43,430 nucleotides of DNA from Candidatus Eiseniibacteriota bacterium (lineage in GTDB: Bacteria; Arandabacterota; Arandabacteria; Arandabacterales; Arandabacteraceae). Within the stretch, counting starts at the first letter, position 1. Each line of letters opens with the position of its first letter. Where the stretch lies: positions 1 through 43,430 of the forward strand of contig JBDRNT010000062.1 of the NCBI GenBank assembly GCA_043810925.1, given 5' to 3'. Below, piece by piece: positions 18,403-40,536 of this stretch. Made by a program: the position numbers and the translations under genes. Under the pieces are notes generated by a model. It was not told the DNA's origin. It made no database searches and saw nothing but the letters and a program-made list of their open reading frames with translations.

Positions 18403-18406
18403 CATT

Positions 18407-26899: not shown

Positions 26900-26992
26900 T
26901 GGCTCCCCGGACAAGTGTCTCAGAGCGTGGTCTTGTGGGATAGTGTGGCAGCTGCAACAAAACGGATTGCCAAGGGGCACGTGAGGCTGTCG
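26900..26992 (+). repeat. Dispersed att-like element, copy 1 (long form)
   Basis: TGGCTCCCCGGACAAGTGTCTCAGAGCGTGGTCTTGTGGGAT...GTGAGGCTGTCG; 71/93 identical to copy 6 without gaps. Confidence 0.92.
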
Positions 26993-27265
26993 GCCGCACC
27001 TTGTTCAAATGGACTCAACACCGATCGCACGAGCCAAACGATTGCCCTCGCGGCATGCTACCCTATCCTCGCATTGGCGAGTTCCTGACCAAGACCTGTT
27101 CGCCGGCCCGCCTAATCGGAAACTGCACAAAAGGTCAAGAGATTGTGCGCATCAGAGACCTTTGGCGGAGTCTCTGAGGTTGAGCCTGGTTCCCCCGGCC
27201 ACACCTCTGGAGGATATGCATGCTCAGCTACCTGTCATTTGCCTGTACAGGGATGATTTTACTCA

Positions 27266-27727
27266 TCACCTCGCCGGAGAATCTTCGAGGATAATCTCTA
27301 GTTCCCGGCTCCTCTTCAGCCAGGCTTCAGGCTCCGCAGAGAATTGCCCTTTGCTTGTAGCGCAACAGAAATATACCCTCTTCCCTGCATAGTCTGTATA
27401 AATGCTCCTGTTGACCGGCTTACCGGACATTATGTCTCTGGTTTGTCGTTGAGGTGTCTGGGGCGCCACCTTCTTTGTTGCAGGTCTCTCGACCTCCTGA
27501 GCAGGCATCTCCTGGGCTTTTGGCGCGACTTTCCCCACCTCTTGAATAGGTTTCTCCTCTGCCTTTACTGTGACTTCCGCCGCCTCTTGAATCGGTTTCT
27601 TCTCTTCCTGTACTGCGACTTCCGCCGACTCTTGGCTGGGCCTCTCCTCCCTGGCACAAGAGACAACCATGAGTGGTGCTGCCATAAGTGATAGCAGCAA
27701 GATGATTGAGAGTAGTCTGCACATCAT
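27266..27727 (-). CDS. Lipoprotein-like protein with low-complexity linker and C-terminal YHS domain
   Basis: AGGAGG RBS, signal ending VVSC, DIMSGKPVN...YAGKRVYFCC. Confidence 0.8.
   Translation of the reverse strand: MMCRLLSIILLLSLMAAPLMVVSCAREERPSQESAEVAVQEEKKPIQEAAEVTVKAEEKPIQEVGKVAPKAQEMPAQEVERPATKKVAPQTPQRQTRDIMSGKPVNRSIYTDYAGKRVYFCCATSKGQFSAEPEAWLKRSRELEIILEDSPAR
27492..27635 (-). repeat. Three 45-nt (15-aa) tandem repeats in the YHS protein linker
   Basis: GACTT anchors at 27527, 27572 and 27617; AEVAVQEEKKPIQEA/AEVTVKAEEKPIQEV/GKVAPKAQEMPAQEV. Confidence 0.85.
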
Positions 27728-27773
27728 ACGCCTCCTGTTAGAGTAGAATCAGGCAATACTCCTCCACCTGTTC

Positions 27774-28208
27774 TCATTTGCTAAGGTTCAACACATAAAG
27801 GCTGGCAATGCCCAGAGGCAAACCAATCGCTTTGGGCAATGACATTCCCTCCTCGAAGAAAGTGACCCCCACTGCTGACATCGTCAACACCCCACCGACC
27901 AGAACAAGGGGCCCAGCCACAGACAAGCTGCCCCCCAACCTGAAAATAGCGAAGTACAGGACTGTCCCTATTCCCATACAGACACCCGCGATAACTGAAA
28001 ACAGAAGCCCAGCCTTACTGAGATTGAGCAGATTCGTTCCACCAAAGCCCGAGATCGCGATATACCCCAAGATCAGGAACGCAGGCGTGAATTCCAACAC
28101 CAACCCGCCAAACTGGTCAGAGATCTTGCCGGAAGCGAGCTTTGTGAACACATTATGAAGTCCATATAGTACAGCCGCGATAAACGTCGCAATTCTCCAG
28201 GATTCCAT
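27774..28208 (-). CDS. Small EamA/DMT-family transporter
   Basis: About five hydrophobic helices, FFEEGMS..KAIG; start moved to MESWR after GAAGGAAG. Confidence 0.8.
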   Translation of the reverse strand: MESWRIATFIAAVLYGLHNVFTKLASGKISDQFGGLVLEFTPAFLILGYIAISGFGGTNLLNLSKAGLLFSVIAGVCMGIGTVLYFAIFRLGGSLSVAGPLVLVGGVLTMSAVGVTFFEEGMSLPKAIGLPLGIASLYVLNLSK

Positions 28209-28355
28209 AAGAACTTCCTTCAACCCGGTGCATCGACAGATTCTCCCATGATCCACACGGAATGGTTTTCAGCGATTGCGTTGGATGATGTCACAGTTCG
28301 AACCCCGCAATGGGGCAGTCTGTGCGAACTGCGAACATTCGTCTGCAGAAACCGA

Positions 28356-28760
28356 TTATGCCGGCAGAGGAGGGCCTCGTATTGAAAAGGAAGCGATATG
28401 CCAGCTAATCTTGGGTAGACTGAGACCGTCAAACACTTCCCCCGGACACTTCACCGGCGCAGACGGTGCTGAGAAGGAGGAGATGAGAGCTATAGGCAGA
28501 GATCTGAAGACCGAAGGTTTCGCATGATAATGAAGATATGTCCAGTCTCCCTCAAAATGGTTGTACTCCTCACCATGATGATCGGTCTCAACCGGCTCAG
28601 TGTTATAATGTCTGACGGGATGGGAGCTAAGTGTCAGCTGGGTACGCTGGCTCTCTTCAGCAAGATGAACATGGATATAGGGGTACATCTGGCCAACAAG
28701 AACATGAATGACCAGTAAGAACGCGATTGAGTTTCTGAGATGTTTATCCATATCAGACAC
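28356..28760 (-). CDS. His-rich small protein with N-terminal hydrophobic segment and C-terminal RGPP (DUF2946/CzcI-like)
   Basis: GGGAGGG RBS 7 nt before GTG 28760 (alternative ATG 28751); HVH, HHGEEYNH, HYH; ends SIRGPPLPA. Confidence 0.65.
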   Translation of the reverse strand: MSDMDKHLRNSIAFLLVIHVLVGQMYPYIHVHLAEESQRTQLTLSSHPVRHYNTEPVETDHHGEEYNHFEGDWTYLHYHAKPSVFRSLPIALISSFSAPSAPVKCPGEVFDGLSLPKISWHIASFSIRGPPLPA

Positions 28761-28965
28761 TACTCGACCCTCCCGTGTTTCATTGAACCATAAATCCGTA
28801 TTTCGGTTCCACAGATATTCCATATGCCCGTGCGGAGAAGGGTTCAGGTGTCCACCACGTCTTCTAAGGGTTTCTCCCTGCCAAACACTGCGTACAGTCT
28901 CCGGCGTGATGTGGAGTGCGAGACCGATACCGGGTGGCACTGTCAGCAAGAATTCTCAAGAGAGA

Positions 28966-29007
28966 TGGCTCCCCTGAGAAATGTCTGAGGGTGCGGTTCT
29001 GTGGGAT
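28966..29007 (+). repeat. Dispersed att-like element, copy 2 (degenerate)
   Basis: TGGCTCCCCTGAGAAATGTCTGAGGGTGCGGTTCTGTGGGAT; ungapped match to the 42-nt core. Confidence 0.85.
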
Positions 29008-29104
29008 GTTATAGCGGTTGCGGCAAACACGTGGTTATGATCAGAAGACGGGACGCCTCGGCAGCCTATCCACCTCGAGGCCGACTGTCACATCAAGTCT
29101 GAGT

Positions 29105-29479
29105 TCATTCATCGTCCGAAGAGACAACTTCGAAAAACATCACAGGGCCGGCTTCGGTCATTATTGGGTCCTCAATCGCGGAGATGATCTGTTCCGGGCT
29201 GGTCTTATCAGGTTGATACCATATGTCAACCTGCCTTCTTCCTGCATACACCGTGATACTGACAAGCCCGGCCAGTGACCCGATGTGTTCACGAAGGGAT
29301 TCAGCGGTTCCATAGCAGTGGATGCCCTGCACGGTGAAAGTGGTGTGGGCCACTTTTCCTTCGACGCTCTCAGCATATCTGAAGGTCAGCGTCGGTATTC
29401 TCACCGCACGCGCACCAAGTATCCCCGCAAAGGTGAGTACGATAATCACTGCCGGGATTATCCAGACCTTTCTTGTCAA
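29105..29479 (-). CDS. Membrane-anchored HMA-like domain protein
   Basis: N-terminal TM, FTVQGIHCYGT, YQPDKTSPEQIISAIE; AGGAGAGG RBS. Confidence 0.75.
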   Translation of the reverse strand: MTRKVWIIPAVIIVLTFAGILGARAVRIPTLTFRYAESVEGKVAHTTFTVQGIHCYGTAESLREHIGSLAGLVSITVYAGRRQVDIWYQPDKTSPEQIISAIEDPIMTEAGPVMFFEVVSSDDE

Positions 29480-29491
29480 TTCCCTCTCCTG

Positions 29492-30274
29492 CTATATCCC
29501 AATGTCCAATGCCCCTTTCCGGGAACATGTAGCGACGCAGTCCAGGCAACTAGTACAGTCGGACCTGGCAACCTTCGCCAGAGTTGATACAGGGATGCGT
29601 TGAAGGCACCCTGCGTCACAGGCACCACAACCATTACAGCGCGCATCATTACGTGTTACCTTCAGTAATCCTATCCTTGACAGTGGGGTCATCACTGCGC
29701 CAAGCGGACAAAGGTATCGACACCAAGCCATCTCAAATAGGAATGTCGCTGCCAGGACACCGCCTAAAATACTCAGACTCACCACGGGAATCAACCCGTG
29801 CCCCCTACCACCGGTGAATAATATATAGAAAGGATCATACCCCCTGAAGATCAGTTCAGAGGTCCAGAAAGTGAAAACCAGGATCAAGCCAAGGACTACG
29901 TATCTCAGATTCACCAGTATTCTATCTATGATGTCGGGCACTCTCAGAGTGTCTCGTCCCATGACCCTTTTTCGCACCCAAACCAGAGACTCGAAGATTG
30001 TTCCCAGCGGGCAGACCCAGCTACAGAAGCCTTTCTTCATGACGATGACTCCCACCAAGACCGCCAGAGCGATGCTCACGTTCATCTCATTGAGAGCACA
30101 GATGAACTGCTGTCTACTCAGAAGGCCATAGATGGAAACCACACCGCCCATAGGGCAATAGTACTCAACCGTCTTAGCACTGGTACCTGCAAGCCCGCGT
30201 ATCAGAAGGGATATGGCGCCCCCGAGGAAGAAGAGCTGGAATAACCGTCTTGTGACTCTTATCTTAGCCATCAC
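29492..30274 (-). CDS. Membrane 4Fe-4S binding protein (NapH/YccM/MauN-like)
   Basis: YCPMG, FCSWVCPLG, WCRYLCPLG, CNGCGACDAGC, CTSCLDCVATC. Confidence 0.9.
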   Translation of the reverse strand: MMAKIRVTRRLFQLFFLGGAISLLIRGLAGTSAKTVEYYCPMGGVVSIYGLLSRQQFICALNEMNVSIALAVLVGVIVMKKGFCSWVCPLGTIFESLVWVRKRVMGRDTLRVPDIIDRILVNLRYVVLGLILVFTFWTSELIFRGYDPFYILFTGGRGHGLIPVVSLSILGGVLAATFLFEMAWCRYLCPLGAVMTPLSRIGLLKVTRNDARCNGCGACDAGCLQRIPVSTLAKVARSDCTSCLDCVATCSRKGALDIGI

Positions 30275-30609
30275 TCATAAGATATGCGACACCAGACGGC
30301 CAGTCCATCGAAAAGTGTTTGCCGTCCACAGAACCCGGACGCGGAAGGTGTATCATCTACGTCGTACCTGGCGGCCACGGGAGACCAGCCTCACCTCAGC
30401 GCTTTGGCCACCGGACAGGCTGTTCCCCCAAAGCCGAGTCTATATCCTTCTTGTACACTCCGTGCTCCACCTGTGCTTCGATCGTCAACCAGCCCCTGCG
30501 GTGGAACTGATACGGCCTTTCCATCACGATGCGATACTCGGGCACGCTTATGTCAAAATAGCCCTATGCGGACGATTACTCGACATAGGGTCACTATCCG
30601 AGGCTGGGA

Positions 30610-30677
30610 CACGCTTTCAGACATTTGAATGCCAATGGCTCCCCGGGCAAGTGTCTGAAAGCGTGGTTCTGTGGGAT
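30610..30677 (+). repeat. Dispersed att-like element, copy 3, with complete inverted left arm (attP-like)
   Basis: CACGCTTTCAGACATTTG (30610-30627) and CAAGTGTCTGAAAGCGTG (30648-30665) are 17/18 inverted, symmetric about GG 30637-30638. Confidence 0.92.
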
Positions 30678-30932
30678 ACAAACGCCTTCTGCTGGTCGTC
30701 AGGCCGGAAGTGGCTCGACCCACGTGATACTGCAACCCTATCGCCAGGACGATAGGGTTGCCGCTCTGAGCTCGCGATTGTCGGGATTTGAGGGGCAAAT
30801 GCGGAACCCCGGGATGTTCTCATGGGTCTAAGAGAAGAGACCGATACACTTGTATATAGATGTGTACGATCGAGGCTGGGTTTGGTATTCTCTTGTAGGA
30901 ACGCTCGGCGGGCGAAAGGGACGGCGATAGAC

Positions 30933-31391
30933 ATGAGATCTGGGCTTCACAGGTTTGTCAGAATACCGGATGCCTGCGTATGGCTCTGGGTTCTCGCTCT
31001 TGTGGCCCAGGCATCGGCCGTGGCCCCTGTGTTGTGTATGAAGATGGATGGTCAGGTCGAGGTGGAAGCCACCTGCACTTGCCATCGCGGCCCCGCTTCA
31101 CATGGGTTTCCCTCTTTATCATCTTCGAGTTCAGTCTTAGATACGAACCTCAACGATCGGTGCGGCGGATGTTTCGACCTCCAATCCCCGATTGGTGCGG
31201 GAGTACCCGTAGGTGTCGACCAGGGCTCATTGCCAGGCATCAAGTCACTGAGGTCGGGAGCATTTGCGGCCTCACCGACTACTCCCACAGATGTAGCGGT
31301 GGGTATCCAGCATGGGGTGCCTGCTTCACGCCGATCACCTCCTGACAAGACTTCACTAGTCTCTCTCCGAACGACTGTCCTCCTTTGTTGA
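30933..31391 (+). CDS. Cys-containing small protein preceding the efflux operon (CzcI-like position)
   Basis: Hydrophobic N-terminus, VLC...DGQVEVE, CTCH, CGGC, C-terminal LRTTVLLC. Start chosen at ATG 30933. Confidence 0.6.
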   Translation: MRSGLHRFVRIPDACVWLWVLALVAQASAVAPVLCMKMDGQVEVEATCTCHRGPASHGFPSLSSSSSVLDTNLNDRCGGCFDLQSPIGAGVPVGVDQGSLPGIKSLRSGAFAASPTTPTDVAVGIQHGVPASRRSPPDKTSLVSLRTTVLLC

Positions 31392-31512
31392 TGCTCTCCT
31401 GAGCAGTCATCTGCACGCCTATCTACGCGAGCAACTTCAATTGACATGGCATGGGAGGATGAACATTGGTCAAAGACAAGTCAGCGATGGGGTCACTCCG
31501 GAGGTTTTCTTG

Positions 31513-32901
31513 ATGCGTCTGAAATATCTTATCCTGTTCGTTCTAGCCCCGGCAGTTGCGCTGAGTGGCTGCACCACACCTCATGTGAATGCGAGCCGGT
31601 CCGAGGCACGCCCTCTTGGAAGTGACTTCGAGACATTCCAGGCACCTGAAGAGCCATCTGAGGTATCGGTGCCGGCAGGGCCGGAAGGCCCCACCGATGA
31701 AGAGCCCACCGGTATCATCGACATGCGCCAGGCTCTGGCCCAGGCACTGATAAATAGCCCTGAGCTCGCGGCCTTTTCCTGGGAGGTCAGGGCCAGCGAG
31801 GCCGCCGCAGTCCAGGCCGGGCTCTTTCCAAACCCTGAGATTGGCGTTGAAATGGAGAATTTCGGCGGCTCCGGGGAATTCGAGGGCTTTGATGGAAGCG
31901 AGACCACATTCCGGCTCAGTCAGCTAATCGAACTGGGAGGGAAGCGTTCGGGCCGGGCGCGAGTCGCTGCATTGGATCTGAATCTCGCCGGGTGGGATTA
32001 CGAAAGCAAGCGCCTGGAGGTTGTCAGCGAAGCGACCAAGGCCTTTGTGGATGTTCTTGCTGCGCAGGAGAGGCTGGCACTCACTGAAGAACTGGAAGAC
32101 CTGGCCGATGAGGTTTTCAATGTCGTACGAGAGCGGGTCCGGCATGGAAAAGTCTCTCCCGTGGAGGAGGCGAGAGCCGGAGTTGTCCTGGCTTCCAGTC
32201 GAATAGAGACGGAGAAAGCTGGGCGCGAACTCGAGGCATCGCGGAAGCGGCTGGCAGCAATCTGGGGCAGTTCGTCGCCCGCCTTTGAGAGCGTCAGCGG
32301 AGAGCTTGAAGTCATCGAATCCATCCCTCCTGCCGGAACGGTTGCCCGCCACGTGTCACGGAACCCGGATATTGTCCGCTGGGCCGCCGAGATGGAGCAA
32401 CGCGAAGCCGCCTTAGACTTGGAGAAGGCAAGGAGGATCCCTGACCTCACGTTGAGTGGAGGTGTCAAGCACTTCAGGGAGATGGATATCAACGCCTTCG
32501 TGGTGGATCTGTCTATTCCCCTCCCCCTCTTCGATCGGAATCAGGGAGGAACCCGAGAGGCAAGATACAGACTGGCCAAAGCCAGCGAGGAACGCAGAGC
32601 TTCTGAAGTGCGGGTTCGTACCGCGCTTGCGGAAACACATCTGTCACTCTCCGCTGCCTATGCGCAGGCGGTGGCCCTGAGAGACGATGTGCTCCCGGGA
32701 GCCACGACCGCTTTCGAGGCAGCAAGCGAGGGCTATCGCCTTGGGAAATTCAACTACCTGGACGTTCTGGATGCCCAAAGGACCCTGTTCAAAGCCCGCG
32801 AGCAGTACATCGAGACGCTGGCGGCCTACCACAAAGCATCTGTCGATGTTGAGAGATTGATCGGGGAGCGCCTTGATGCCGTTAAGAACACCCCCGAATA
32901 G
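31513..32901 (+). CDS. czcC: TolC/CzcC-family outer-membrane efflux lipoprotein
   Basis: GGAGG RBS, lipobox LSGC, QAGLFPNP, IELGGKR, PLPLFDRNQG, LDVLDAQRTL. Confidence 0.9.
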   Translation: MRLKYLILFVLAPAVALSGCTTPHVNASRSEARPLGSDFETFQAPEEPSEVSVPAGPEGPTDEEPTGIIDMRQALAQALINSPELAAFSWEVRASEAAAVQAGLFPNPEIGVEMENFGGSGEFEGFDGSETTFRLSQLIELGGKRSGRARVAALDLNLAGWDYESKRLEVVSEATKAFVDVLAAQERLALTEELEDLADEVFNVVRERVRHGKVSPVEEARAGVVLASSRIETEKAGRELEASRKRLAAIWGSSSPAFESVSGELEVIESIPPAGTVARHVSRNPDIVRWAAEMEQREAALDLEKARRIPDLTLSGGVKHFREMDINAFVVDLSIPLPLFDRNQGGTREARYRLAKASEERRASEVRVRTALAETHLSLSAAYAQAVALRDDVLPGATTAFEAASEGYRLGKFNYLDVLDAQRTLFKAREQYIETLAAYHKASVDVERLIGERLDAVKNTPE

Positions 32902-32917
32902 AATCTCAGGAGGCATT

Positions 32918-34525
32918 ATGAGGAGTATGAAGCAAATGATTCCCGTCGCCGTGATATTAGTTGCCATAGCGGTCGTTCTTGTGGTGGTCAAGGGCAAAGA
33001 ATCACCGAGTCCCGGAGACATCCACATGACGAGCTCGCAGCCTGTGACCGGCCCGCGACCCGCAGCGGCCCAAGGGCAAGAGCTCTGTGCCAGACATCAG
33101 CTCCCGGTCGCGGAGTGTTTCTCCTGTGATCCCACCTTGAGAGAGCCGGGCCGGCTGTGGTGCAAGGAACATGATCGTTATGAAGACCGATGTTTCATCT
33201 GCCATCCGGACTTAGTGGATACGGGACGCCTGTGGTGCGAGGAGCACCGCCTCTACGAAGATGAGTGCTTCTTCTGTCATCCGGAACTTCGCGAGGAGGA
33301 AACAGGCTCCGCGGAAGGCGACGCTTGCTGTCCCGGAGACGCCGAAGCAAGGACTTCCCCACCCGGTGAACTCCTATGCGTCGAGCACGACGTCTGGGAA
33401 AGTGAGTGCGGGATCTGTCATCCGGAGTTGATCGCCAATCTTGAGCCCGGCCAGGGCCTGAAGATACGTCTGGCGTCCCCGGAATCGGCCGCGAAAGCCG
33501 GGGTCGAGACATCGGTGGGCGCCAAAGGCAGCTCCCTTGGGGGACTGGTGGTCTTGAGCCGCCTGTCATACGACCAGAACCGGCTTGCCCGCATCACCCC
33601 TCTCGCGGCCGGGGTCGTTCGGAACGTGTATGCGGATGTGGGGGATTCGGTCTCAAGGGGACAGGTGCTTGTCGAGATTGACTCTCCGGATATCGCCCGG
33701 GCAAAGAGTGACTACTTGAACTCACTTGCGGACGAAGCCTTGAAGGAACTCGTCTTCAACCGGGAAAGGGATTTACTCGCAAAGAACATCACCTCCCAAC
33801 AGGAGTACGAGGAAGCTTCAGCAGAGTACCAGATGGCCACGAACGCCACGAAGACCAGGTGGCAGCAGCTCCTGAACTATGGATTGACCGAGAGATACGT
33901 TCAGGAAGTGGCGGAGACGAGCTCAAGCTCCTCTCGCCTTCCCATACTGGCGCCGTTCTCCGGAACGCTTGTTGAGAGAGATGCCGTCATTGGCGAGGCC
34001 GTAGAGGTCGGTGACATGTTGTTCACCCTTGCCGATCTGTCGTCGATGTGGCTGGAGCTCTCGATCCCAGAGGACAGGTTGTCTTCAGTAGAAGTAGGTG
34101 ATCCCGTTGAAGCGACTTTCGATGCTCTCCCCGGAATGAGCGTGAGCGGCCAAGTGATCTGGCTGGCCTCAAGCATTGATGAGCAGAGCCGGATGATCAA
34201 GGCCCGCGCGATCATACAGAACCGGGGTTCGTCGCTAAAGCACGGGATGTTCGGACAAGTACGGATCTTACCGAAACGGAATCTCAGCGGACTCCGTGTT
34301 CCGGGCCAGGCCCTTCATCATATCGATGGAATCCCTGTCGTTTTCGTTAAGCTCGAGGATGATCTTTACGAGATTCGGAGGGTTGCCCTGGGAGGTAACA
34401 CAGGAGGTAGTGTCGAGATTCTGGAGGGGATTCTCCCGCAAGAAGAAGTTGTCGTGGCCCACAGCTTCACGATGAAATCAGAATTTCTCAAGTCCCGCCT
34501 CGGCGCGGGATGTGTACATGAATAA
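32918..34525 (+). CDS. czcB: CzcB-like RND periplasmic adaptor with N-terminal Cys/His repeats
   Basis: AGGAGG RBS, TM anchor, APFSGTLVER, ADLSSMW, LKHGMF; lies between TolC and RND genes. Confidence 0.88.
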   Translation: MRSMKQMIPVAVILVAIAVVLVVVKGKESPSPGDIHMTSSQPVTGPRPAAAQGQELCARHQLPVAECFSCDPTLREPGRLWCKEHDRYEDRCFICHPDLVDTGRLWCEEHRLYEDECFFCHPELREEETGSAEGDACCPGDAEARTSPPGELLCVEHDVWESECGICHPELIANLEPGQGLKIRLASPESAAKAGVETSVGAKGSSLGGLVVLSRLSYDQNRLARITPLAAGVVRNVYADVGDSVSRGQVLVEIDSPDIARAKSDYLNSLADEALKELVFNRERDLLAKNITSQQEYEEASAEYQMATNATKTRWQQLLNYGLTERYVQEVAETSSSSSRLPILAPFSGTLVERDAVIGEAVEVGDMLFTLADLSSMWLELSIPEDRLSSVEVGDPVEATFDALPGMSVSGQVIWLASSIDEQSRMIKARAIIQNRGSSLKHGMFGQVRILPKRNLSGLRVPGQALHHIDGIPVVFVKLEDDLYEIRRVALGGNTGGSVEILEGILPQEEVVVAHSFTMKSEFLKSRLGAGCVHE

Positions 34526-34543
34526 CCGCCGGAGGGCACCCTT

Positions 34544-37500
34544 ATGCTAGGCAGGATCATCGAGACGTCGCTGAAGAACCGGCTGGTTGTGGTTCTTGTC
34601 ATCGCCGTGAGCGTTGGGCTGGGCATCCGGGCCATGACGCGCACTCCCGTGGATGCCTTTCCTGACACCACACCGGTACAGGTGCAGATCAATACCACCG
34701 CGCCGGCCCTGAGCCCGGCGGAAATCGAACAGCAGATCACGCTCCCGGTAGAACTCTCGATCGCCGGTCTGCCGGGTCTCACCAATGTTCGCTCAATCTC
34801 GAAGTTCGGCTTCTCACAAGTCGTCGCTACGTTTGACGACCAGACCCACGTATACGATGCCCGCCAGTTCATTCTCGAGCGGCTCGGGAGCGTCAACCTC
34901 CCGGAAGGCATAGGGCGCCCCCAGCTCGGACCCATGTCAACAGGCCTGGGAGAGGTCTTTCACTATATTGTCCGCTCTACCAATCCTGACCGTTCCCTTG
35001 ACGAGCTCCGGACTCTTCATGACTGGGTCGTTAAGCCGGAGCTGCGCAAGGTGGCGGGGGTGGCAGAAGTCAATTCGTGGGGTGGTTTCGAGCGGCAGTA
35101 CCACGTAATCACGGCACCCCGGGCTCTCATCAGCTACCATCTCACCCTGGACAGTGTTTTTGAGGCCCTTGAGAAGAACAATCAGAATGTCGGAGGCGGA
35201 CAGGTCGTAACCTCCGGTCAGACCCTGCTGGTTCACGGCGTGGGTCGCGTCACCACCATCGAAGAGATCGAGAACATAGTCATCAAGGCGCACGAAGGCG
35301 CCCCTGTCCGCATAAGGGATGTAGCAGAAGTCGCACTGGGACACGAGATCCGCCGCGGCGCAGTTACGGCTCACGGACAAGGAGAGGCCGTGTTGGGGCT
35401 CGGTTTCATGTTGATGGGAGAGAACAGCAAGGAGGTTACCGAGGAACTAAAAGCGCGGCTGGAATCGGTCCGGAAATCCCTGCCCGACGATGTCGTCCTG
35501 GAAACTGTTTACGATCGTACGGAGCTGGTGCAATCGGTTATCGGCACGGTTAAGCACAATCTGATCGCCGGAGCCGCACTGGTAGTTGTCGTGCTGTTTC
35601 TGTTCCTGGGGAATCTCCGGGCAGGTCTGATAGTCGCCCTGGCAATCCCCCTCGCCTTGATCTATGCATTCCTGGGCATGTACGCGCTTGCCATCGCCGC
35701 GAGTCTCTTGAGTCTTGGCGCGATGGACTTCGGTATCATCGTCGATGGCTCCGTGGTAATGACAGACAACAACATGCGGAGATTAGTCGACGAGCAGAAG
35801 CGCCTGGGAAGGGCTCTCAATAAGGCCGAGCGGCTCAGGATCATCCTCGCTTCGAGCAAGGAAGTCGTGCGCCCCATCGTATTCGGCATGGCCATCATCC
35901 TGATCGTGTTCTTTCCAATCCTCACCCTGGAAGGCATCGAGGGGAAGATGTTCAAACCTATGGCCTGGACCTTCATCTTCGCCATGGTCGGAGCAGCAGC
36001 GGTAGCCGTGACTCTATCTCCCATCCTGTCCTACTACTTCCTCCCTCGAAGACTCAAGGAGAAGGAAGGCTTTGTCGAGAGGTTGCTGAAGAGAGGTTAC
36101 TCCTTCCTCATCTCCAGGGTGCTTGGCAGGAAACGAATGCTTTTCAGTTCGGTCCTGATCCTACTTGCGCTGACGGCTCTCGTAGGCTCCAGACTCGGGG
36201 GCGAATTCATTCCCAAGCTCCGCGAGGGAGCGATCGTCATCAATACCATACGTCTTTCAGGAGTCTCAATCGATGAGTCGGTCGACTACAACAGTCGAAT
36301 TGAGGCCCTCCTGCTGGAGAGCTTTCCAGATGAGATCAAGTACATCTGGAGCCGGATCGGGACAGCCGAAGTGGCAACAGATCCCATGGGCATAGAGCTG
36401 ACCGACTTCTTTATCACGCTTCATCCCAGGGACAGGTGGACGCGTGCGGGAACCCAGGCCGAACTGGTCAAACGGATGGAGGAACTGGTCGATGACTTGC
36501 CCGGGCTTAACATGATATTCACACAGCCCATAGAAATGCGCCTGAATGAGATGGTCTCCGGCATTCGCTCGGATGTCGGCGTCAAGATTTTCGGGGATGA
36601 CTTCGACACCCTGGTTGGTCTGAGCGATCAGATTCAGGGAATACTCCTGGCCATCGAGGGTGCCTCAGACGTGGCCGGGGAGCAGATTACAGGACAACCA
36701 ACATTACAGATTATGGTGAACCAGGATCAGCTCGCCCGGCATGGCATCCCGGCACGCAATGTGCTCGACCTGATCGAGAGCGTGGGCGGGCGTCGCGTAG
36801 GTGACATTTTCGAGGGTCAGAGGCGCTTTCCCCTCGTGGTGAGGCTCCCTGACGAGCAGCGCACAGATGTAGGAATCCTGGCCAATACGTTGATTCCCAC
36901 CGAAGTTGGTCCGCTCTTGCCACTACGCCGGCTAGCTGAGGTGAGGGAAACCGAAGGACCATCGACCATCAGCCGCGAGTGGGGCCGTCGCCTGATCAAA
37001 GTGCAGTGCAATGTCAGAGACCGGGATGTTGCATCGTTTGTGAAAGAAGCACGGTCCCGCATTGATAATGAAGTGACATTGCCCGAAGGGTACGTGCTCG
37101 AATGGGGAGGTCAGTTCGAACATCTGGAACGCTCTAAAATGAGATTCTCGATCGTTGTGCCCATCACGTTGGCACTCATCTTCCTCGTGCTGTACTTCAG
37201 CCTCAAAAGCCTGAGTGATGTGCTCATCATTTATACTGGCATTCCCTTCGCAGCCATAGGAGGCGTGTTGGCTCTCTGGGGTCGGGGGATGCCCTTTAGC
37301 GTGAGCGCGGCAATTGGATTCATCGCTCTCAGCGGCGTTGCTGTTCTGGATGGACAGGTGCTGGTTTCTACCATCCGGACTTTGCGGAGTCAGGGCCTTC
37401 CATTGGTTGAGGCCGTGATAGGAGCGGCAAAGCAGCGGCTCCGGCCCGTCCTGGCAACATCAGTCACTGACGCGGCCGGGTTTATCCCCATGGCCATTTC

Positions 37501-37663
37501 GACCGGGGTTGGAGCGGAGGTGCAGCGCCCCCTCGCCACAGTGGTCATCGGGGGTATCACTACCTGCACTCTTCTGACGCTGTTCGTGCTTCCGGCACTG
37601 TATCTTGCTCTAGGTAGGTGGATGGAGAAGAGAGCCCGCTTGTATTCTGACCCGACCGCCTAG
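34544..37663 (+). CDS. czcA: CusA/CzcA-family heavy-metal efflux RND permease
   Basis: DAFPD, STGLGE, SLGAMDFGIIVDG, EGKMFKPMA, FTQPIEMR, RLRPVL, GAEVQRPLATVVIGG. Confidence 0.95.
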   Translation: MLGRIIETSLKNRLVVVLVIAVSVGLGIRAMTRTPVDAFPDTTPVQVQINTTAPALSPAEIEQQITLPVELSIAGLPGLTNVRSISKFGFSQVVATFDDQTHVYDARQFILERLGSVNLPEGIGRPQLGPMSTGLGEVFHYIVRSTNPDRSLDELRTLHDWVVKPELRKVAGVAEVNSWGGFERQYHVITAPRALISYHLTLDSVFEALEKNNQNVGGGQVVTSGQTLLVHGVGRVTTIEEIENIVIKAHEGAPVRIRDVAEVALGHEIRRGAVTAHGQGEAVLGLGFMLMGENSKEVTEELKARLESVRKSLPDDVVLETVYDRTELVQSVIGTVKHNLIAGAALVVVVLFLFLGNLRAGLIVALAIPLALIYAFLGMYALAIAASLLSLGAMDFGIIVDGSVVMTDNNMRRLVDEQKRLGRALNKAERLRIILASSKEVVRPIVFGMAIILIVFFPILTLEGIEGKMFKPMAWTFIFAMVGAAAVAVTLSPILSYYFLPRRLKEKEGFVERLLKRGYSFLISRVLGRKRMLFSSVLILLALTALVGSRLGGEFIPKLREGAIVINTIRLSGVSIDESVDYNSRIEALLLESFPDEIKYIWSRIGTAEVATDPMGIELTDFFITLHPRDRWTRAGTQAELVKRMEELVDDLPGLNMIFTQPIEMRLNEMVSGIRSDVGVKIFGDDFDTLVGLSDQIQGILLAIEGASDVAGEQITGQPTLQIMVNQDQLARHGIPARNVLDLIESVGGRRVGDIFEGQRRFPLVVRLPDEQRTDVGILANTLIPTEVGPLLPLRRLAEVRETEGPSTISREWGRRLIKVQCNVRDRDVASFVKEARSRIDNEVTLPEGYVLEWGGQFEHLERSKMRFSIVVPITLALIFLVLYFSLKSLSDVLIIYTGIPFAAIGGVLALWGRGMPFSVSAAIGFIALSGVAVLDGQVLVSTIRTLRSQGLPLVEAVIGAAKQRLRPVLATSVTDAAGFIPMAISTGVGAEVQRPLATVVIGGITTCTLLTLFVLPALYLALGRWMEKRARLYSDPTA

Positions 37664-37709
37664 AATAGGGCCACTCCTGGAGGCAGACCTACGCCTCTGG
37701 GCACTTGAG

Positions 37710-37751
37710 CGGCTCCCCGGATGAATGTCTGAGAGCGCGACTCTGTGGGAT
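37710..37751 (+). repeat. Dispersed att-like element, copy 4
   Basis: CGGCTCCCCGGATGAATGTCTGAGAGCGCGACTCTGTGGGAT, between the convergent czcA and BNR genes. Confidence 0.88.
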
Positions 37752-37808
37752 GCACTGGCCCTTGGGACTTGGTGCAGATCGTGGCAAGAGACCGTTGGAC
37801 GCAGACTG

Positions 37809-40385
37809 CTACTTCGTGATCACGATACTTCGGGACTTCTGTTCCCCGCCCGCCTGGAGGGTGACAAAGTAGACTCCGCCAGTCAAATCGCTGGCAGACC
37901 ACCAGGTCGTGCGAATGACTCCATCGCCGCTGGGAAGATCGCCGACATGACTGACAAGCCTCCCGCGCACGTCATAGACATCTAGGCTGACAGGCCCGGG
38001 ATGCCTCGATGCAAAGCGCAATAGGGTGCGGTCCCGAACAGGGTTCGGGTAGGGAGGGTCCAGCATGAGGTGAATCGCGGAACCACCCGCCACTTCCACG
38101 TCCACTCCGCTCAGCGGCGGAATGTCGATCTCCCAGGCACCGCGCCCATGAGTACCGGCAACGAGCTTCCTGGCGCTCCTGCGAATTTCCAGATCCAGAA
38201 CGACGGCATTCGGCAGTCCCACTTCGTGGGGTACCCAGTTCATCCCGCCGTTGGTGCTCGACCACACTCCCACGTCGGTGCCGATATACCACACTATCGG
38301 ATCGAGAGGATCAACAATCATCGTATTGACGGGCTGCGATCGAAGGTCTCCAGTCACATCCACCCAGCTGGCGCCCATGTCCGTGGTCATGGCGATGTGC
38401 GCTCGTCCCGCGGCGTATCCCGAGAAGGTCACAAACGCGGTATTCACATCGGTCGGATGAGCATGGATCTTGGTCTCGGCACCCGCGTAGAATCCGTATG
38501 GACCCGCATTCTGCCAGGTTTCAGCATCGTCCGTAGTAAACGTCACACCCTCTGAGTTCACCGTCCACACCACATCACCATTCACCGGGCTTATGGATAT
38601 CCAGGTGGCAGTTTGCGCGCCAACCAATCCCCAGCTGCTGCCTCCATTCGTGGTCCGGAAAATCCCATCGCTGGTGGATGTGAAGAGACGCGACGGCTGA
38701 TTCTGGTCCTCGTCCACCGGGGCAATCCAGGAACCACTGCCGGTAATCCCGTTCATAATGGTGAACCAGCTGGCCCCCCCGTTGACACTCTTAACATGAT
38801 TCCCGAACTGCCATTCGCCGTAGATCCGGTCCGCATTGTTGGGGTCCACGCTGCACACCATCCCGTCGGCGAGAAGTGTCGATACGGCCCACGTGTCAGG
38901 ATCCACCCGCCCGGGAATCCCGTTGTCCTGGGTCCCCCCCATCATGAAGGCGGGGTCCGATTGGGCGACGCAAATATCGTAGAACTGATAGGTGACCAGG
39001 CCTTCGCGCCGGGAGGACCAGGTCGCGCCGTCATCGGTGGACCTCCAAACGCCGCCGTCGGTGCAGACCCACACATTGCTGGTGGACCCGGGTTCATAGG
39101 CAATGGCATGATGATCCCAGTGCACATCAGTTTCGTTTCCCAGAATGAAGCCCTCGCCCGTCTTTGAGAAATTGACTCCACCGTCGGTTGAGCGATACAG
39201 ACTCACCCCGCCTGCGATCACCGTGTTGATATCATTCGGGTCCGCGGCCAGCGTGAGGTTGTACCAGCCTTGAGAGTTCACCATATTGAGTGTAGTGTTC
39301 TGCGGGACCCAGGTTTCGCCATTGTCGTCGCTACGGTAGACGCCCAGGGACTGTGAGTTCTGCGAGCTTGTGTAGTTCGCGTAGATCACACTCGGGTCGG
39401 CGGCTGAGACAGCGATCTTTGTCTTCCCAACCTCGTCACCCGGAGGCTGACCGGTTCCGGCCTTGTACCACGTAAGGCCGTCGTCTGTAGAAACCTTGAC
39501 ATTGTTATTGCCCAGGCCGAATCCCTTGGCCGCGTATACGCGGCTCGGATCTCCCGGTTTCCACTTCACATCGTACCACCGGCCGGTGGACTGTTCCTCG
39601 GTCCATGTCTCTCCATCGTCCGTCGATCGAAAGAGACCCTCGCGTGTCCCGGCCAGGATCGTTCCGGTGTATGGATTCGCCTCAATCACATTGGTTCCGC
39701 TTCCAGCGCTTACCGGGTAAGATAGGCCGGTGGTGCTCCAGGTCTCACCTCCATCGACCGACTTAAGAATACCCACGCCGAAGAGACCGGGGTAGGCGCC
39801 GGTTCCCTCGCCCGTGCCAATGAGAACGACATCCGGGTCCCAGGGAAGAACGCATATTGCGCCTACTGCAAGTGTCGGCAGCTCATCCGTGGTGGTCCTC
39901 CACGTGTCGCCGCCGTCGTCTGACTTCCATAACCCGCCACTGGCCGCTCCCACATATACGATGTCCGGATTCGTGGGGTGGAAATCGATCGAGATGATGC
40001 GGCCGGACATATTCACCGGCCCGATGGCGAACCAGCTTGCCAGGGGAGCTCTGCCGAGATCCGCTTCACGCTCCATGCGAGCCTGCCAGGCCTCCCAGCG
40101 GGCGCCGAAATCAGGGAGCTTGTCGTCCGTCATCCTCGGTTCCAGAAGCCACTTGACCCGGTTGTAGGGTTTCCAGCCGCTTCCCCTCTGTTCTTTGAGC
40201 TCAGGATATTCTTCGTAGAAGCGGGCCATCTCATTGAGCCAGACGAGTCCCGGATCATCGGCCACGTGATCTTCGGACGCGAATGCGCTCAAGGGTTGCA
40301 TGCCGATCACCCCGATGGAAATGCTCAGGACAGCAAGAAGGCAAACGTTTCGGAGTGTTCTCCGCAAACCGGCGATCATGGTCAT
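37809..40385 (-). CDS. Secreted BNR/Asp-box (VPS10/GH74-like) beta-propeller protein with FlgD/T9SS-like CTD
   Basis: Many SxDGGxTW Asp boxes, SGRI, GGTQDNG, AGTHGRG, tail PYPNP...YDVRGR...GVYFV. Start ATG 40385 after GAGGAG. Confidence 0.88.
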   Translation of the reverse strand: MTMIAGLRRTLRNVCLLAVLSISIGVIGMQPLSAFASEDHVADDPGLVWLNEMARFYEEYPELKEQRGSGWKPYNRVKWLLEPRMTDDKLPDFGARWEAWQARMEREADLGRAPLASWFAIGPVNMSGRIISIDFHPTNPDIVYVGAASGGLWKSDDGGDTWRTTTDELPTLAVGAICVLPWDPDVVLIGTGEGTGAYPGLFGVGILKSVDGGETWSTTGLSYPVSAGSGTNVIEANPYTGTILAGTREGLFRSTDDGETWTEEQSTGRWYDVKWKPGDPSRVYAAKGFGLGNNNVKVSTDDGLTWYKAGTGQPPGDEVGKTKIAVSAADPSVIYANYTSSQNSQSLGVYRSDDNGETWVPQNTTLNMVNSQGWYNLTLAADPNDINTVIAGGVSLYRSTDGGVNFSKTGEGFILGNETDVHWDHHAIAYEPGSTSNVWVCTDGGVWRSTDDGATWSSRREGLVTYQFYDICVAQSDPAFMMGGTQDNGIPGRVDPDTWAVSTLLADGMVCSVDPNNADRIYGEWQFGNHVKSVNGGASWFTIMNGITGSGSWIAPVDEDQNQPSRLFTSTSDGIFRTTNGGSSWGLVGAQTATWISISPVNGDVVWTVNSEGVTFTTDDAETWQNAGPYGFYAGAETKIHAHPTDVNTAFVTFSGYAAGRAHIAMTTDMGASWVDVTGDLRSQPVNTMIVDPLDPIVWYIGTDVGVWSSTNGGMNWVPHEVGLPNAVVLDLEIRRSARKLVAGTHGRGAWEIDIPPLSGVDVEVAGGSAIHLMLDPPYPNPVRDRTLLRFASRHPGPVSLDVYDVRGRLVSHVGDLPSGDGVIRTTWWSASDLTGGVYFVTLQAGGEQKSRSIVITK

Positions 40386-40406
40386 TATGATAGGCTCCTC
40401 GTTCAC

Positions 40407-40435
40407 ATTATACCACCACGCCCGGCTCATGTAAA
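40407..40435 (-). promoter_or_regulatory. Sigma70-type promoter of the BNR gene
   Basis: Minus strand TTTACA-17 nt-TATAAT with extended -10 TG. Confidence 0.75.
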
Positions 40436-40464
40436 CGCTCACCCGATAAGCAGATTGGTGAGGT

Positions 40465-40536
40465 CGGCTCCCCGGGCAAATGTCTGAAAGTGTCCTCTTG
40501 CTAGATGCTGTGGCACTCTTTGCACGAGGGATTGCA
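40465..40536 (+). repeat. Dispersed att-like element, copy 5
   Basis: CGGCTCCCCGGGCAAATGTCTGAAAGTGTCCTCTTGCTAGATGCTGTGGCA...GGGATTGCA aligns ungapped with copies 1 and 6. Confidence 0.88.

Follow-up and report, generated by a model that had tools for sequence, protein, structure and literature searches.

A two-armed serine-integrase-type site in a probable tandem array of tRNA-Asn islands from a Candidatus Eiseniibacteriota bacterium

Introduction

Why does one copy of a repeat carry a complete dyad while its neighbours keep a single arm, and which enzyme would leave such a pattern? The question is raised by a stretch of 43,430 nt from a Candidatus Eiseniibacteriota bacterium (assembly GCA_043810925.1, contig JBDRNT010000062.1, forward strand), called the window throughout. 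The original prediction, made from the sequence alone, took the dyad in copy 3 of the repeat for a serine-integrase att site and the other copies for hybrid sites. This core inference was supported by the computational analysis described here, which further tied the site to a large serine recombinase (LSR) gene and to the 3′ end of tRNA-Asn.

Results

Six direct copies of one block are separated by cargo genes

A block of about 100 nt beginning with the right arm of the dyad was found in 6 copies in the window and 28 in the genome. All window copies are direct and on the + strand, with starts at 26901, 28967, 30637, 37711, 40466 and 42414. The copies, which were located by repeat search and alignment, and the DNA between them are listed below.

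26901..27000, + strand: copy 1, one-armed; an unrelated left flank, then the P′ block
27009..30274, no strand given: cargo between copies 1 and 3; small ORFs, among them those for YHS-domain, HMA-domain and 4Fe-4S proteins
28967..29036, + strand: copy 2, one-armed, with a diverged block (CCCCTGAG)
30637..30706, + strand: copy 3 of the repeat block (P′ arm and conserved extension)
30822..37663, + strand: cargo between copies 3 and 4; a 189-aa ORF and a czcCBA-like RND efflux operon (OEP, HlyD, ACR_tran)
37666..37710, + strand: decayed left part before copy 4, a putative relic of an LSR 3′ end, directly after the czcA-like stop
37711..37780, + strand: copy 4 of the repeat block
37809..40631, − strand: cargo between copies 4 and 5; a protein with BNR/sortilin repeats and a T9SS C-terminal sorting domain
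40466..40535, + strand: copy 5, one-armed, diverging after the arm
40643..42345, + strand: cargo between copies 5 and 6; genes for a TetR regulator and for a CAAX-protease-like protein
42414..42513, + strand: copy 6, one-armed, with 1 mismatch to the 41-nt consensus

The ORFs scanned beside the copies are cargo and not integrase genes. The invariant columns of the six-copy alignment start at a GG, preceded by T in copies 1, 2, 3 and 6 and by C in copies 4 and 5, exactly as predicted, and the same boundary holds across 64 distinct copies from five genomes. Forty-seven of these 64 lack the left arm and have unrelated left flanks that end precisely at T/GG; 37 of them have T and 9 have C before the GG, and further left there is almost no information. 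Within every multi-copy contig the 28 copies of the genome keep one orientation, and they lie mostly on short contigs or at contig ends. The left part of copy 4 (TAGGGCCACT...) aligned with the left extension of C101:16427 and C88:2498, at about 60% identity counted by eye. Judged by their sequence, copies 1, 2, 5 and 6 are read as one-armed hybrids and copy 4 as a decayed two-armed hybrid; the proposal that the other copies keep one arm thus stood for four of them and not for copy 4.

Left of the array, only about 14250-20150 of the window matched the same-genus genome, at about 65-67% identity, and the match beyond consisted of scattered short pieces and repeat copies. The 258-aa ORF left of copy 1 had no syntenic match in the relatives. 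Public sequencing runs shared at most 0.14 of the window's words. Environmental contigs matched 42414-42454, the 41-nt core, with loose ends on both sides, and unrelated sequence began before 42412-42414. Four environmental runs yielded no contig linking two att copies and no circle junction, with 27-30 kb and 40-42 kb of the window mostly uncovered. No Rfam family scored above threshold in the window, and no GTTRRRY core of the integron attC type was seen by eye in the repeat block.

Copy 3 contains a real dyad with an enlarged left spacer

30610..30627, + strand: left arm of the dyad (P half-site), coding ..T-R-F-Q-T-F.. of the LSR remnant (repeat and dyad analysis)
30628..30635, + strand: left spacer (comparison among two-armed sites)
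30636..30646, + strand: identity block TGGCTCCCCGG, common to the element site and the reverse-complemented tRNA-Asn 3′ end
30648..30665, + strand: right arm of the dyad (P′ half-site), conserved in 6/6 window copies

The dyad is composed of CACGCTTTCAGACATTTG (30610-30627), aatgccaatGGctccccggg (30628-30647) and CAAGTGTCTGAAAGCGTG (30648-30665), its arms being 18 nt each and complementary at 17/18 positions. Inverted repeats of this class (18-nt arms, at most 1 mismatch, loop of 3-30 nt) occurred once in the window, against a mean of 0 and a maximum of 0 in 100 dinucleotide-preserving shuffles. Folded as single-stranded DNA, the dyad reached −19.2 kcal/mol (z = −3.85). The left arm is the exact reverse complement of the copy 6 arm at 42425-42442 (18 nt, 100%). 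Both the complete dyad of 56 bp and the match of its left arm to copy 6, as originally described, were thereby confirmed.

The span of 56 bp differs from the 50 bp of most other two-armed sites, and both fall within the imperfect dyads of about 40-55 bp, or close to it, that characterize LSR att sites. Counted from where the 15-nt arm core ends, the spacer before the GG is 11 nt long in copy 3, with 6 extra bases; an 11-nt spacer was found in three sites (window 30611, G000:C66:4211 and G007:C110) and a 5-nt spacer in all other listed sites, and a MAFFT alignment opened a 6-column gap in the other sequences opposite the extra bases. The geometric axis of copy 3 therefore falls on the GG, between G30637 and G30638, because the left spacer is 11 instead of 5 nt long. 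In the usual sites the axis lies between T and C, 3 nt right of the GG, which in copy 3 would be T30640/C30641. The predicted axis on the GG accordingly holds for copy 3 and does not extend to the usual site.

The arm pairs co-vary across four lineages with the dyad preserved, namely CAGACATT/AATGTCTG in the window type, ACACCAAT/ATTGGTAT in L152, ACACCAAC/GTGGTATC in L178 and CCACCAG/CTGGTGCC in L123.

Coding sequence of a decayed LSR gene ends with the left arm

30486..30677, + strand: remnant of the LSR C-terminal coding region, read through the dyad in the frame of the ORF 30213..30755

Residues 92-155 of this ORF matched P0002 by BLASTP (34/64 identical residues, E 2e-16), and window positions 30483-30680 matched an LSR fragment on contig C63. 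The left arm is the last coding stretch of the decayed LSR gene. The frame continues into the repeat block as W-L-P-G-Q-M-S-E-S-V-V-L-W-D, and left-extended copies read ..YGRPPEIGPLSEGDSRFQTLE. The copy 3 left arm was found ahead of TGGCTCCCC in 13 of the 64 distinct copies and at three tRNA-Asn junctions. The arm thus occurs with other copies as well as with recombinase genes.

The 158-aa C63 fragment matched 24 longer proteins. Full-length relatives from metagenomes (537-594 aa, 42-80% identity over the aligned part) carry PF00239, PF07508 and PF13408, the Resolvase, Recombinase and Zn ribbon set, and their genes directly abut the same site. The associated enzyme belongs to the LSRs and not to the IS607-type transposases. 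A118, TP901-1 and other integrases are its nearest solved structures. The window retains only about 64 alignable C-terminal LSR residues; no full-length LSR of the clade was found in its genome or in 12 relatives, and the LSR matches in these 13 family genomes are fragments with an open frame of at most 201 aa, many containing stops. Of the predicted intact attP or circle-junction-like site, both arms and the P-P′ arrangement stand, and the intactness is doubtful.

The C-termini of the relatives are of two kinds, ending either ..WLPGQDSNLQPSG by read-through into the tRNA or ..WLPGQMSESVALWD../..RIARGQ.. in the repeat block. Related elements have 135-151 nt in common after the core before they diverge, a length that fits a tail-coding block. 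Beyond codon 14 of the tail, where codon-position entropy was 1.75/1.70/1.81, support for coding is weak.

Intact relatives occur in Omnitrophota, Dehalococcoidia, Planctomycetota, Elusimicrobiota and other groups, and many relatives come from Dehalococcoidia genomes. Genes for a DnaG-like primase and a DnaB/AAA_25 helicase, together with an ECF-sigma-like gene, are present in the intact relatives examined. In 35 loci, a search of the 10 kb upstream did not find the far end (X-P′) of intact elements, apart from the dyads of L121 and L123. Judged by ORF sizes, no small second serine recombinase lay beside the LSR in five loci, and the ORFs listed for L100, L111, L116 and L103 included no same-strand ORF of about 200 aa directly upstream of it.

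The same element is joined to the repeat block and to tRNA-Asn

The core TGGCTCCCCGG is the reverse complement of the tRNA-Asn 3′ end, comprising CCA, discriminator and acceptor stem. LSR loci were surveyed in 125 rows (L100-L224), 98 of them with a complete LSR reading frame. Among these 98 complete genes, which belong to other phyla, 44 end inside an opposite-strand tRNA-Asn(gtt), 3 in tRNA-Arg, 2 in tRNA-Gln and 1 in tRNA-Asp. A tRNA-Asn body preceded by the left arm and TGGCTCCCCGG was also present in G011:C322, G011:C6 and G007:C72. The reciprocal hybrid, that is, the left arm beside a GG elsewhere, was therefore found at these three junctions as well as in the 44 of 98 complete LSR genes.

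One element was seen in both states. Over the 5 kb upstream, L147 and L153 are 100% identical, and their identity to L150 and L152 is 99.7-99.8%. On the downstream side, L147 and L150 continue into tRNA-Asn in two different contexts, whereas L152 and L153 run into a P′ block; the L152/L153 integrase is a long form of 582 aa, and that of L147 is a tRNA-terminated form of 546 aa; the divergence between the two pairs begins directly after TGGCTCCCCGG, or in L150 after TGGCTCCCC. The arrays of the same-genus genome G001 have tRNA-Asn or a 3′ fragment of it at their end (C48, C148). No tRNA-Asn was found among the 41 tRNAs of the window's assembly, and a search of the genome for the core with a T-arm was also empty, so that the anchor of the array is deduced from the relatives.

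All four site types expected from exchange of half-sites (attP, attB, attL and attR) were recovered: P-P′ sites (copy 3, L152/L153), P-tRNA sites (L147, L150, G011:C322, G011:C6, G007:C72), X-P′ sites (47 copies) and tRNA-Asn without the P arm (G001:C148).

Crossover is bracketed to nine nucleotides

The crossover was bracketed to the 9 nt TGGCTCCCC (30636-30644), the first 9 nt of TGGCTCCCCGG. The left boundary of conservation lies at T/GG, and the GG proposed originally as the point of exchange is inside the bracket. Entropy drops between C and T of GGC/TCCCC; this step and the usual axis both point to TC. No junction reads were found in the environmental runs. Strand exchange would occur at a central dinucleotide, the best candidate being the TC of GGCTCC.

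Discussion

A probable array of islands at tRNA-Asn

We consider it very probable that the window is part of a tandem array of integrated islands made by an LSR whose target is the tRNA-Asn(GTT) 3′ end. This reading builds on the site anatomy, the links to the LSR and to tRNA-Asn, the two junction states and the arrays that end at tRNA-Asn in relatives, all of which were observed. The attP-type site (P-core-P′) would be an imperfect dyad of about 50 bp within the last codons of the LSR gene itself, where the left arm would code ..SRFQTLE, the core TGGCTCCCCGG WLPG, and the right arm with some 60-100 further bases a C-terminal tail of 35-45 aa. Integration would replace the right half by the tRNA, the LSR then ending ..WLPGQDSNLQPSG, and at the island's far end would leave the P′ block preceded by a foreign left flank. 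Copy 3 (30610-30665) would be the right end of one island, with LSR relic and P arm, against the P′ block of the next; by its sequence it is a P-P′ arrangement, resembling attP in the manner of a tandem junction. The array would have grown by accretion, and the tail would be translated.

Copy 3, with 6 extra left-half bases and an integrase gene cut to a 64-aa relic, is probably a fossil today, as the other window sites probably are. The same extra bases weigh against the island reading, as they would misplace one half-site, and so do the P-P′ junctions of L152, L156 and L157, which lead into three different downstream sequences. A simple course of integration followed by deletion of the integrase also fails to explain a boundary as sharp as that at T/GG in 47 of 64 copies, and classical LSRs are described as leaving attL/attR-like sites unused unless a directionality factor is present. 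The searches that found no full-length LSR of the clade in the 13 family genomes, no tRNA-Asn in the assembly and no contig linking two copies in the four environmental runs count in the same direction, as does the weak codon support for the tail.

Alternative explanations

We regard as rather improbable a rival in which the one-armed P′ sites are live substrates and the array is an integron- or SCC-like platform for cassette capture, with an LSR acting in trans on integrase-less modules and copy 3 as the junction behind the last integrase-bearing module. It supposes an LSR with relaxed requirements for the left half. The 47 unrelated left flanks ending at an identical base would suit such a platform, as would a homologous upstream module whose downstream neighbours differ between G000:C103 and G001:C160. 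In the target, the natural left half is the DNA downstream of tRNA-Asn; this DNA varies between hosts (L147 and L150), so that the enzyme must tolerate varied left halves, and 15 Dehalococcoides ssrA islands without integration module have been discussed as cis-mobilizable (PMC3146451). Against this stand the four environmental runs without junction contigs or circles, the 13 family genomes without a resident LSR of the clade, and the many copies that are degenerate, with stops and diverged arms. Moreover, canonical LSRs are described as recombining attP with attB only. Given comparably slim chances is the broader proposal of an LSR clade that spans phyla, with the tRNA-Asn 3′ end as attB and attP in its own last codons, in which the long-tail form (circle or tandem junction) and the tRNA-terminated form would be a topological switch and live one-armed P′ sites would make an integron-comparable cassette platform.

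Spread of a REP/REPIN or IS200/IS605-derived palindrome by a Y1 (RAYT/TnpA) transposase, the dyad being a REP doublet, appears very unlikely. The copies are indeed dispersed, mostly intergenic and uniform in orientation within contigs, a subset forms a hairpin-capable doublet, and the genome has three Y1_Tnp genes; yet these lie on C14, C115 and C15, contigs without any repeat copy, so that the expected association with RAYT is lacking, and copy orientation does not track contig GC skew, as a replication-linked orientation of the IS200/IS605 kind would. The left arm lies within the LSR reading frame, which the block continues, and the copies are clustered in arrays ending at tRNA-Asn rather than scattered. 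The continued LSR frame argues equally against a structured RNA or transcription signal (terminator, leader or promoter) for neighbouring genes with the dyad as RNA hairpin, to which we give as little credence: it would account for the intergenic place, a hairpin stronger than in shuffles and a −35/−10-like spacing (TGTCTG-17 nt-GATAGT, read by eye), but Rfam gave no match, the second arm is limited to 13 of 64 copies, the genes beside the block occur in both orientations with respect to it and no T-run follows the hairpin. Readings as minus-strand coding, promoter, terminator or REP were dropped once the plus-strand frame and the LSR link appeared. Least probable of all is a repeat kept or spread as target or part of an abutting IS110-family element, with the dyad as IS110 donor or target structure. 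Four copies (C26, C44, C47:129 and C88:5434) are joined to an IS110-family left end and transposase gene, between CT and CTCCCCGG, but only these 4 of 28 are occupied, the IS takes the place of the left flank without including the block, and the LSR and tRNA-Asn links account for both arms without it.

Comparison with known systems

The tRNA-Asn island array is of an already known type, met here in a bacterial group that has been little studied, and its closest known counterpart by description is the Dehalococcoides ssrA islands with DsiB. According to McMurdie et al. (2011, PMC3146451), DsiB is a serine-family integrase of about 540 aa, and the 3′ end of its gene always overlaps the att site; its stop codon thus lies in the neighbouring island or RNA gene, and the authors suggest that the gene is possibly complete only on the circle or beside another island. 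Both systems, by that account, have an integrase of about 540 aa with its 3′ end over the att site and its stop beyond, a target at the 3′ end of a tRNA-like gene, and tandem islands bounded by direct repeats, many without an integration module; here the overlap was found in the LSR gene and the tandem arrangement in window copies 1-6 and, at tRNA-Asn, in G001. They differ in the target, tRNA-Asn here and tmRNA there, and in the point of insertion, at the acceptor/CCA end here and in the T-loop there. Neither an ssrA target nor the module of six genes that includes DsiA, a small serine recombinase, ParB and Mom was found here, and the relatives examined instead carry primase, sigma-like and helicase genes. 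The change of the DsiB C-terminus on integration was noted in 2011 (PMC3146451), and no later follow-up was found in the literature searched. Among the papers listed in that search, none tied a serine recombinase to tRNA-Asn.

Other systems share single features. ICE and IME accretion and CIMEs give tandem arrays with repeated att sites, as here (Guedon et al., PMC5704250); the cases described there, including tRNA-Asn IMEs, use tyrosine integrases, unlike the array discussed here. A P-arm/B-arm hybrid is not expected to serve as attB for serine integrases, in which the present case also differs from ICE and IME accretion. SCC/SCCmec elements, moved by Ccr LSRs, resemble it in that a cassette enters the 3′ end of a conserved gene and arrays include integrase-less pseudo-elements between direct site repeats (PMC3146451). 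The target and the placement of the att site set the two apart, tRNA-Asn and the inside of the recombinase gene being used here. In SCC the target is the protein gene rlmH/orfX, the enzymes are a CcrA/CcrB pair or CcrC, and the att site lies outside the recombinase gene.

Phage serine integrases exchange strands at a central non-palindromic dinucleotide. With Bxb1, phiC31 and A118, the array has in common the Resolvase, Recombinase and zinc ribbon domains, imperfect dyads of 40-50 bp and one-armed attL/attR hybrids; it is unlike them in an attP within the last codons of the integrase, in its numerous one-armed sites and in a target that appears, from the sequences compared, to be a tRNA gene conserved across phyla. 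SSV1-type archaeal virus integrases are tyrosine recombinases with attP inside the gene and a tRNA target, and integration splits the gene. An attP in the integrase gene, a tRNA target and a gene product altered by integration are common to both, but the enzyme here is a serine recombinase and only the last 35-45 codons are exchanged, whereas the SSV1 gene is cut in the middle. IS607 TnpA, a small serine transposase with an N-terminal DNA-binding (MerR-like) domain, likewise uses serine chemistry and crosses over at a short core, but an LSR of about 540 aa with Recombinase and zinc-ribbon domains is of another type, and GG is here no more than a candidate for the crossover.

Meaning of the array

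Serine integrases are workhorses of large-DNA insertion, and an LSR clade with a tRNA end as natural attB might serve as a starting point for broad-host integration tools, since that end is conserved across many phyla and intact relatives occur in several of them. The site in the window itself is most likely a fossil. L147/L150 and L152/L153 offer a matched natural junction pair for the change of the integrase C-terminus on integration. For this genome and its relatives, the repeat family would be explained as the scars and junctions that serine-integrase islands have left where they pile up at tRNA-Asn; the islands carry metal-efflux, secreted-protein and regulator genes.

Dyad and repeat copies in the window

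The 56-bp dyad at 30610-30665 (copy 3) reads as the original prediction gave it, with 18-nt arms complementary at 17 of 18 positions; its left arm is indeed the exact reverse complement of the copy 6 arm, located at 42425-42442. A search for comparable inverted repeats (arms of 18 nt, one mismatch or none, loop of 3-30 nt) gave one in the window versus none in 100 dinucleotide-preserving shuffles, and the folding energy of the dyad as single-stranded DNA was -19.2 kcal/mol (z = -3.85). The six direct copies are all on the + strand:

26901, + strand, copy 1, foreign left flank
28967, + strand, copy 2, foreign left flank
30637, + strand, copy 3, two-armed dyad
37711, + strand, copy 4
40466, + strand, copy 5, foreign left flank
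42414, + strand, copy 6, foreign left flank

The invariant columns of their alignment begin at GG and continue rightward, and the base before GG is T four times and C twice, as had been claimed.

Distribution of the repeat family

The 41-nt consensus occurs 28 times (at most nine mismatches) in the genome of the window (3.85 Mb, 185 contigs). Every multi-copy contig carries its copies in one orientation, which did not track GC skew. Long contigs have their copies at the ends, and the rest are on short contigs, suggesting a small number of arrays at which the assembly broke. The core pattern (at most one mismatch) was present in 8 of 18 genomes of the phylum examined, all of one family, with up to 24 clustered and co-oriented copies per genome; a reversed-pattern control gave no match in the phylum genomes.

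In estuary metagenome runs X1, X3 and X5, the bin at 42414-42454 with the 41-nt core reached a summed contig depth of 15-29, and its flanking DNA a depth of at most about 5.5 with many different sequences on either side. The marine-sediment run X2 had no cover over 42414-42454. The site family appears common in the estuary communities of these three runs.

The left arm and the repeat block read as the end of an integrase

Translated on the + strand, the block reads W-L-P-G-Q-M-S-E-S-V-V-L-W-D followed by a looser ..KRIARGQ.. stretch, and in left-armed copies the frame runs upstream as ..LHKAILGPD.LKIGLYGRPPEIGPLSEGDSRFQTLE. The longest left-extended piece (158 aa, contig C63) matched 24 longer proteins of a metagenome protein collection. 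Its full-length relatives (537-594 aa) contain Resolvase, Recombinase and zinc-ribbon domains, by which they are classed as large serine recombinases (LSRs); among solved structures, TP901-1, A118 and other serine integrases are closest to them. The IS607-family comparison of the original prediction was dropped, this enzyme being of the wrong type. Residues 92-155 of the window ORF (nt 30486-30677) align to one full-length LSR with 34 of 64 identities (E = 2e-16), which makes the left arm of the dyad the final coding stretch of a decayed integrase gene. No full-length gene of this LSR clade was found in 13 family genomes.

The full-length LSRs have two kinds of C-terminus. One, ..WLPGQDSNLQPSG, is what a tRNA 3' end (CCA, discriminator, acceptor stem, T-arm) gives when its reverse complement is translated; the other, ..WLPGQMSESVALWD.. 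or ..WLPGLPSQSAILWD..RIARGQ.., is the repeat block.

tRNA-Asn genes at the integrase ends

The tRNA at LSR ends was identified by ARAGORN as tRNA-Asn(GTT). Among 125 integrase-relative loci surveyed (45 from genome collections of many phyla, 80 from metagenomes), 98 had a complete reading frame and 27 did not. Forty-four of the 98 complete genes terminate within a tRNA-Asn gene of the opposite strand, three at tRNA-Arg, two at tRNA-Gln and one at tRNA-Asp, and 48 end without an ARAGORN-called tRNA. Inspection of these 48 by eye revealed tRNA-like fragments, and attP-type dyads in L152, L153, L156, L157 and L178; two of three matches labelled 'dyad' by the script (L106, L170) were discounted, as they are located at an unrelated TGGC. 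The endings in tRNA-Arg(GCG), tRNA-Gln(TTG) or tRNA-Asp(GTC) instead of tRNA-Asn, seen in a few relatives (e.g. L108, L109), indicate that the target has shifted within the clade. On one Dehalococcoidia contig, two related integrase genes (L121, L123) of opposite orientation lie no more than about 10 kb apart, and both end in an attP-type dyad of their own, not in a tRNA.

In genome G001, of the same genus, the block arrays terminate at a tRNA-Asn, whole or reduced to a 3' fragment:

Contig C48: copies at 15328, 18571 and 20597, then tRNA end at 23939
Contig C148: copies at 26755, 24873 and 24547, then intact tRNA-Asn at 21999

The reciprocal hybrid, a left arm beside GG elsewhere, had been proposed as a search and was found: left arm, core and tRNA are joined in two contigs of one relative (G011:C322, G011:C6) and one of another (G007:C72). 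The window's own assembly lacks tRNA-Asn (41 tRNAs called, none Asn).

The identity block is partly duplicated in tandem at L091 (about 8795-8830, G001:C148), L028 (G003:C371) and L097 (3603-3658, G011:C6), with a few bases between TGGCTCCCCGGACAA and a following GGCTCCCCGG...; in G011:C6, two tRNA 3' fragments lie in tandem. These duplications are possible scars of repeated recombination. At L020 (G007:C11), a forward tRNA T-arm-like sequence unlike every other left flank directly precedes the copy at 8183-8217 (..ACAGGTTCGAATCCTGTCC|GGCTCCCC).

Pfam-scanned ORFs beside tRNA ends or arrays (10) and in the window are cargo, comprising secreted repeat proteins, an AbiE pair, kinase/TPR genes and efflux genes. 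Four tandem 306-nt repeats (1429-2646) lie within a 983-aa open-ended ORF, behind which comes an ORF of 3632 aa (3144-14042), itself with internal repeats; both are giant repeat proteins unrelated to the att-site finding. At 33161-33426, an HlyD/CusB-like membrane-fusion gene contains three copies of a 50-nt repeat (family D7), each read, with no domain match, as encoding a possibly metal-binding Cys/His-rich motif (C..H......C..CHP).

One element occurs in two junction states

Loci L147, L150, L152 and L153 are the same element on four metagenome contigs: in the 5 kb before the site, identity is 100% between L147 and L153, and L150 and L152 reach 99.7-99.8% identity to these two. Downstream of L147 and L150 lie tRNA-Asn genes of two different hosts, alike over just 78 nt; downstream of L152 and L153 lies a block homologous to the window repeat. 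The states diverge immediately past TGGCTCCCCGG, and L150 already past TGGCTCCCC because its host tRNA has A next. With the tRNA downstream the reading frame runs to 546 aa, with the repeat block to 582 aa. L156 and L157 (about 89% identical upstream) have just 135-151 nt past the core in common with L152 and then differ, a length that fits a 35-45-codon tail.

Position of the crossover

The one-armed sites without similarity left of T/GG, and the environmental contigs, loose before 42412-42414, set the left limit of the crossover; the host base past TGGCTCCCC in the L150 junction sets the right limit. This brackets the crossover to 9 nt (window 30636-30644). Across 62 distinct copies, the column entropy was 1.04, 0.40, 0.61 and 0.72 for T-G-G-C, and 0.00, 0.21, 0.32, 0.00 and 0.12 for the following T-C-C-C-C.

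In all listed left-armed sites but three, a 5-nt spacer separates the 15-nt arm core from GG; the three exceptions have 11 nt: tgaatgccaat (window copy 3, 30628-30636), ggaatggtgat (G000:C66:4211) and ggaatggcgat (L041:2930, G007:C110). The 5-nt-spacer dyad is 50 bp with its axis between T and C of GGC-T|C-CCC, likewise T|C in the L152 and L123 lineages; the six additional bases of copy 3 shift the axis onto GG. Arms vary among lineages, the two arms of each site changing in concert, a pattern that fits a protein-binding dyad. From the entropy step and the dyad axis, TC (30640-30641) is the best guess for the exchanged dinucleotide. The GG originally proposed lies within the bracket and is a possible choice, but the entropy step and the usual axis favour TC. 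The 6-nt longer spacer, common to three two-armed sites of two genera, resembles the product of a short duplication at the ..AT-GG junction, and may be either a site variant passed on by descent or a footprint left by recombination.

Other origins of the repeat

A REP/RAYT origin was rejected, as the three Y1 transposase genes are all on copy-free contigs and the copies are clustered. An RNA element or terminator was rejected as well: the Rfam scan of the window gave no match to the repeat, just 13 of 64 distinct copies have the second arm, and no T-run follows the hairpin. An IS110-family element (PF01548; DEDD_Tnp_IS110), whose left end has ~110 nt of untranslated sequence, has its junction at CT|CTCCCCGG, which places the insertion inside the integrase identity block, at or beside the proposed crossover. 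The joined copies in the window's genome are:

C26:16203 (L025)
C44:1222 (L035)
C47:129 (L039)
C88:5434 (L056)

The second IS110 end was not seen, all four copies being at contig breaks. As a secondary insertion joined in just 4 of 28 copies, it was rejected as the cause of the site.

Proposed mechanism and status of the window sites

The comparisons show that the site on the element is a dyad across the integrase gene end and the site on the chromosome the tRNA-Asn 3' end, that the two have TGGCTCCCCGG in common, and that both hybrid types exist. Dimers of serine integrases bind each site, cut at the central dinucleotide and swap halves. By analogy with serine integrases generally, LSR dimers would bind both sites, cut at the central dinucleotide and exchange halves; integration would replace the 35-45-codon tail with 8 tRNA-encoded residues after WLPGQ and deposit the tail block at the opposite island end. 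Accretion would enlarge the arrays, a process reported for ICE/IME tandems (PMC5704250) and Dehalococcoides ssrA islands (PMC3146451).

Copy 3 would be a junction of an island with ~64 integrase residues and the P arm (the dyad left arm) and the next island's P' block (right arm and conserved extension); copy 4 would be a similar, more decayed junction. The LSR remnant, the tRNA junctions and both hybrid types support copy 3 as a serine-integrase attP-like site and most others as one-armed hybrids, as predicted. 'Intact' is a questionable label for copy 3, which is probably a fossil. Its mis-spaced left half, the gene stump and the lack of a full-length clade gene in the family genomes make it probable that the window sites are relics.

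The one-armed sites fit less evenly. Left similarity is absent beyond T/GG in 47 of 64 distinct copies, unrelated flanks stopping at the identical base, and random integrase deletion would not explain this. Classical serine integrases are not known to recombine hybrid sites again. The LSR could be largely indifferent to the left half of its target, whose natural left half varies by host. Recombination of one-armed sites among themselves, compatible with a homologous module beside different neighbours in two genomes, is unlikely, since no contig joining copies was found in four environmental runs. Three one-armed sites (G000:C47:2186, L092:8593, L094:7395) have a left flank of ~125 nt in common (..GATTTCACTATCAGCCCGAACAATAAGACGAAGT) with the integrase 3'-end motif CACTATCAG and no arm, which may be a second, arm-less relic type.

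Relation to known systems

The closest described system, compared by layout, is the Dehalococcoides ssrA-specific islands. In the published account (PMC3146451), these are tandem, bounded by RNA-gene-end repeats and often without an integration module; their 540-aa serine recombinase DsiB has a 3' end always overlapping attL, and its gene is perhaps complete, according to the authors, only on the circle or beside another island. DsiB islands target the tmRNA T-loop, whereas the target here is the tRNA-Asn acceptor end; the accessory genes here are primase, sigma-like and helicase genes, and no DsiA-like partner was seen. SCC composite islands and classical phage att sites resemble it less closely. 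In the IME review, the elements at tRNA-Asn are tyrosine-type (PMC5704250). No relevant link between a serine recombinase and tRNA-Asn turned up among the papers screened. Judged from the surveyed loci, the integrase clade behind the window site is widespread, and its two naturally occurring junction states offer a way to test the tail-swap idea.
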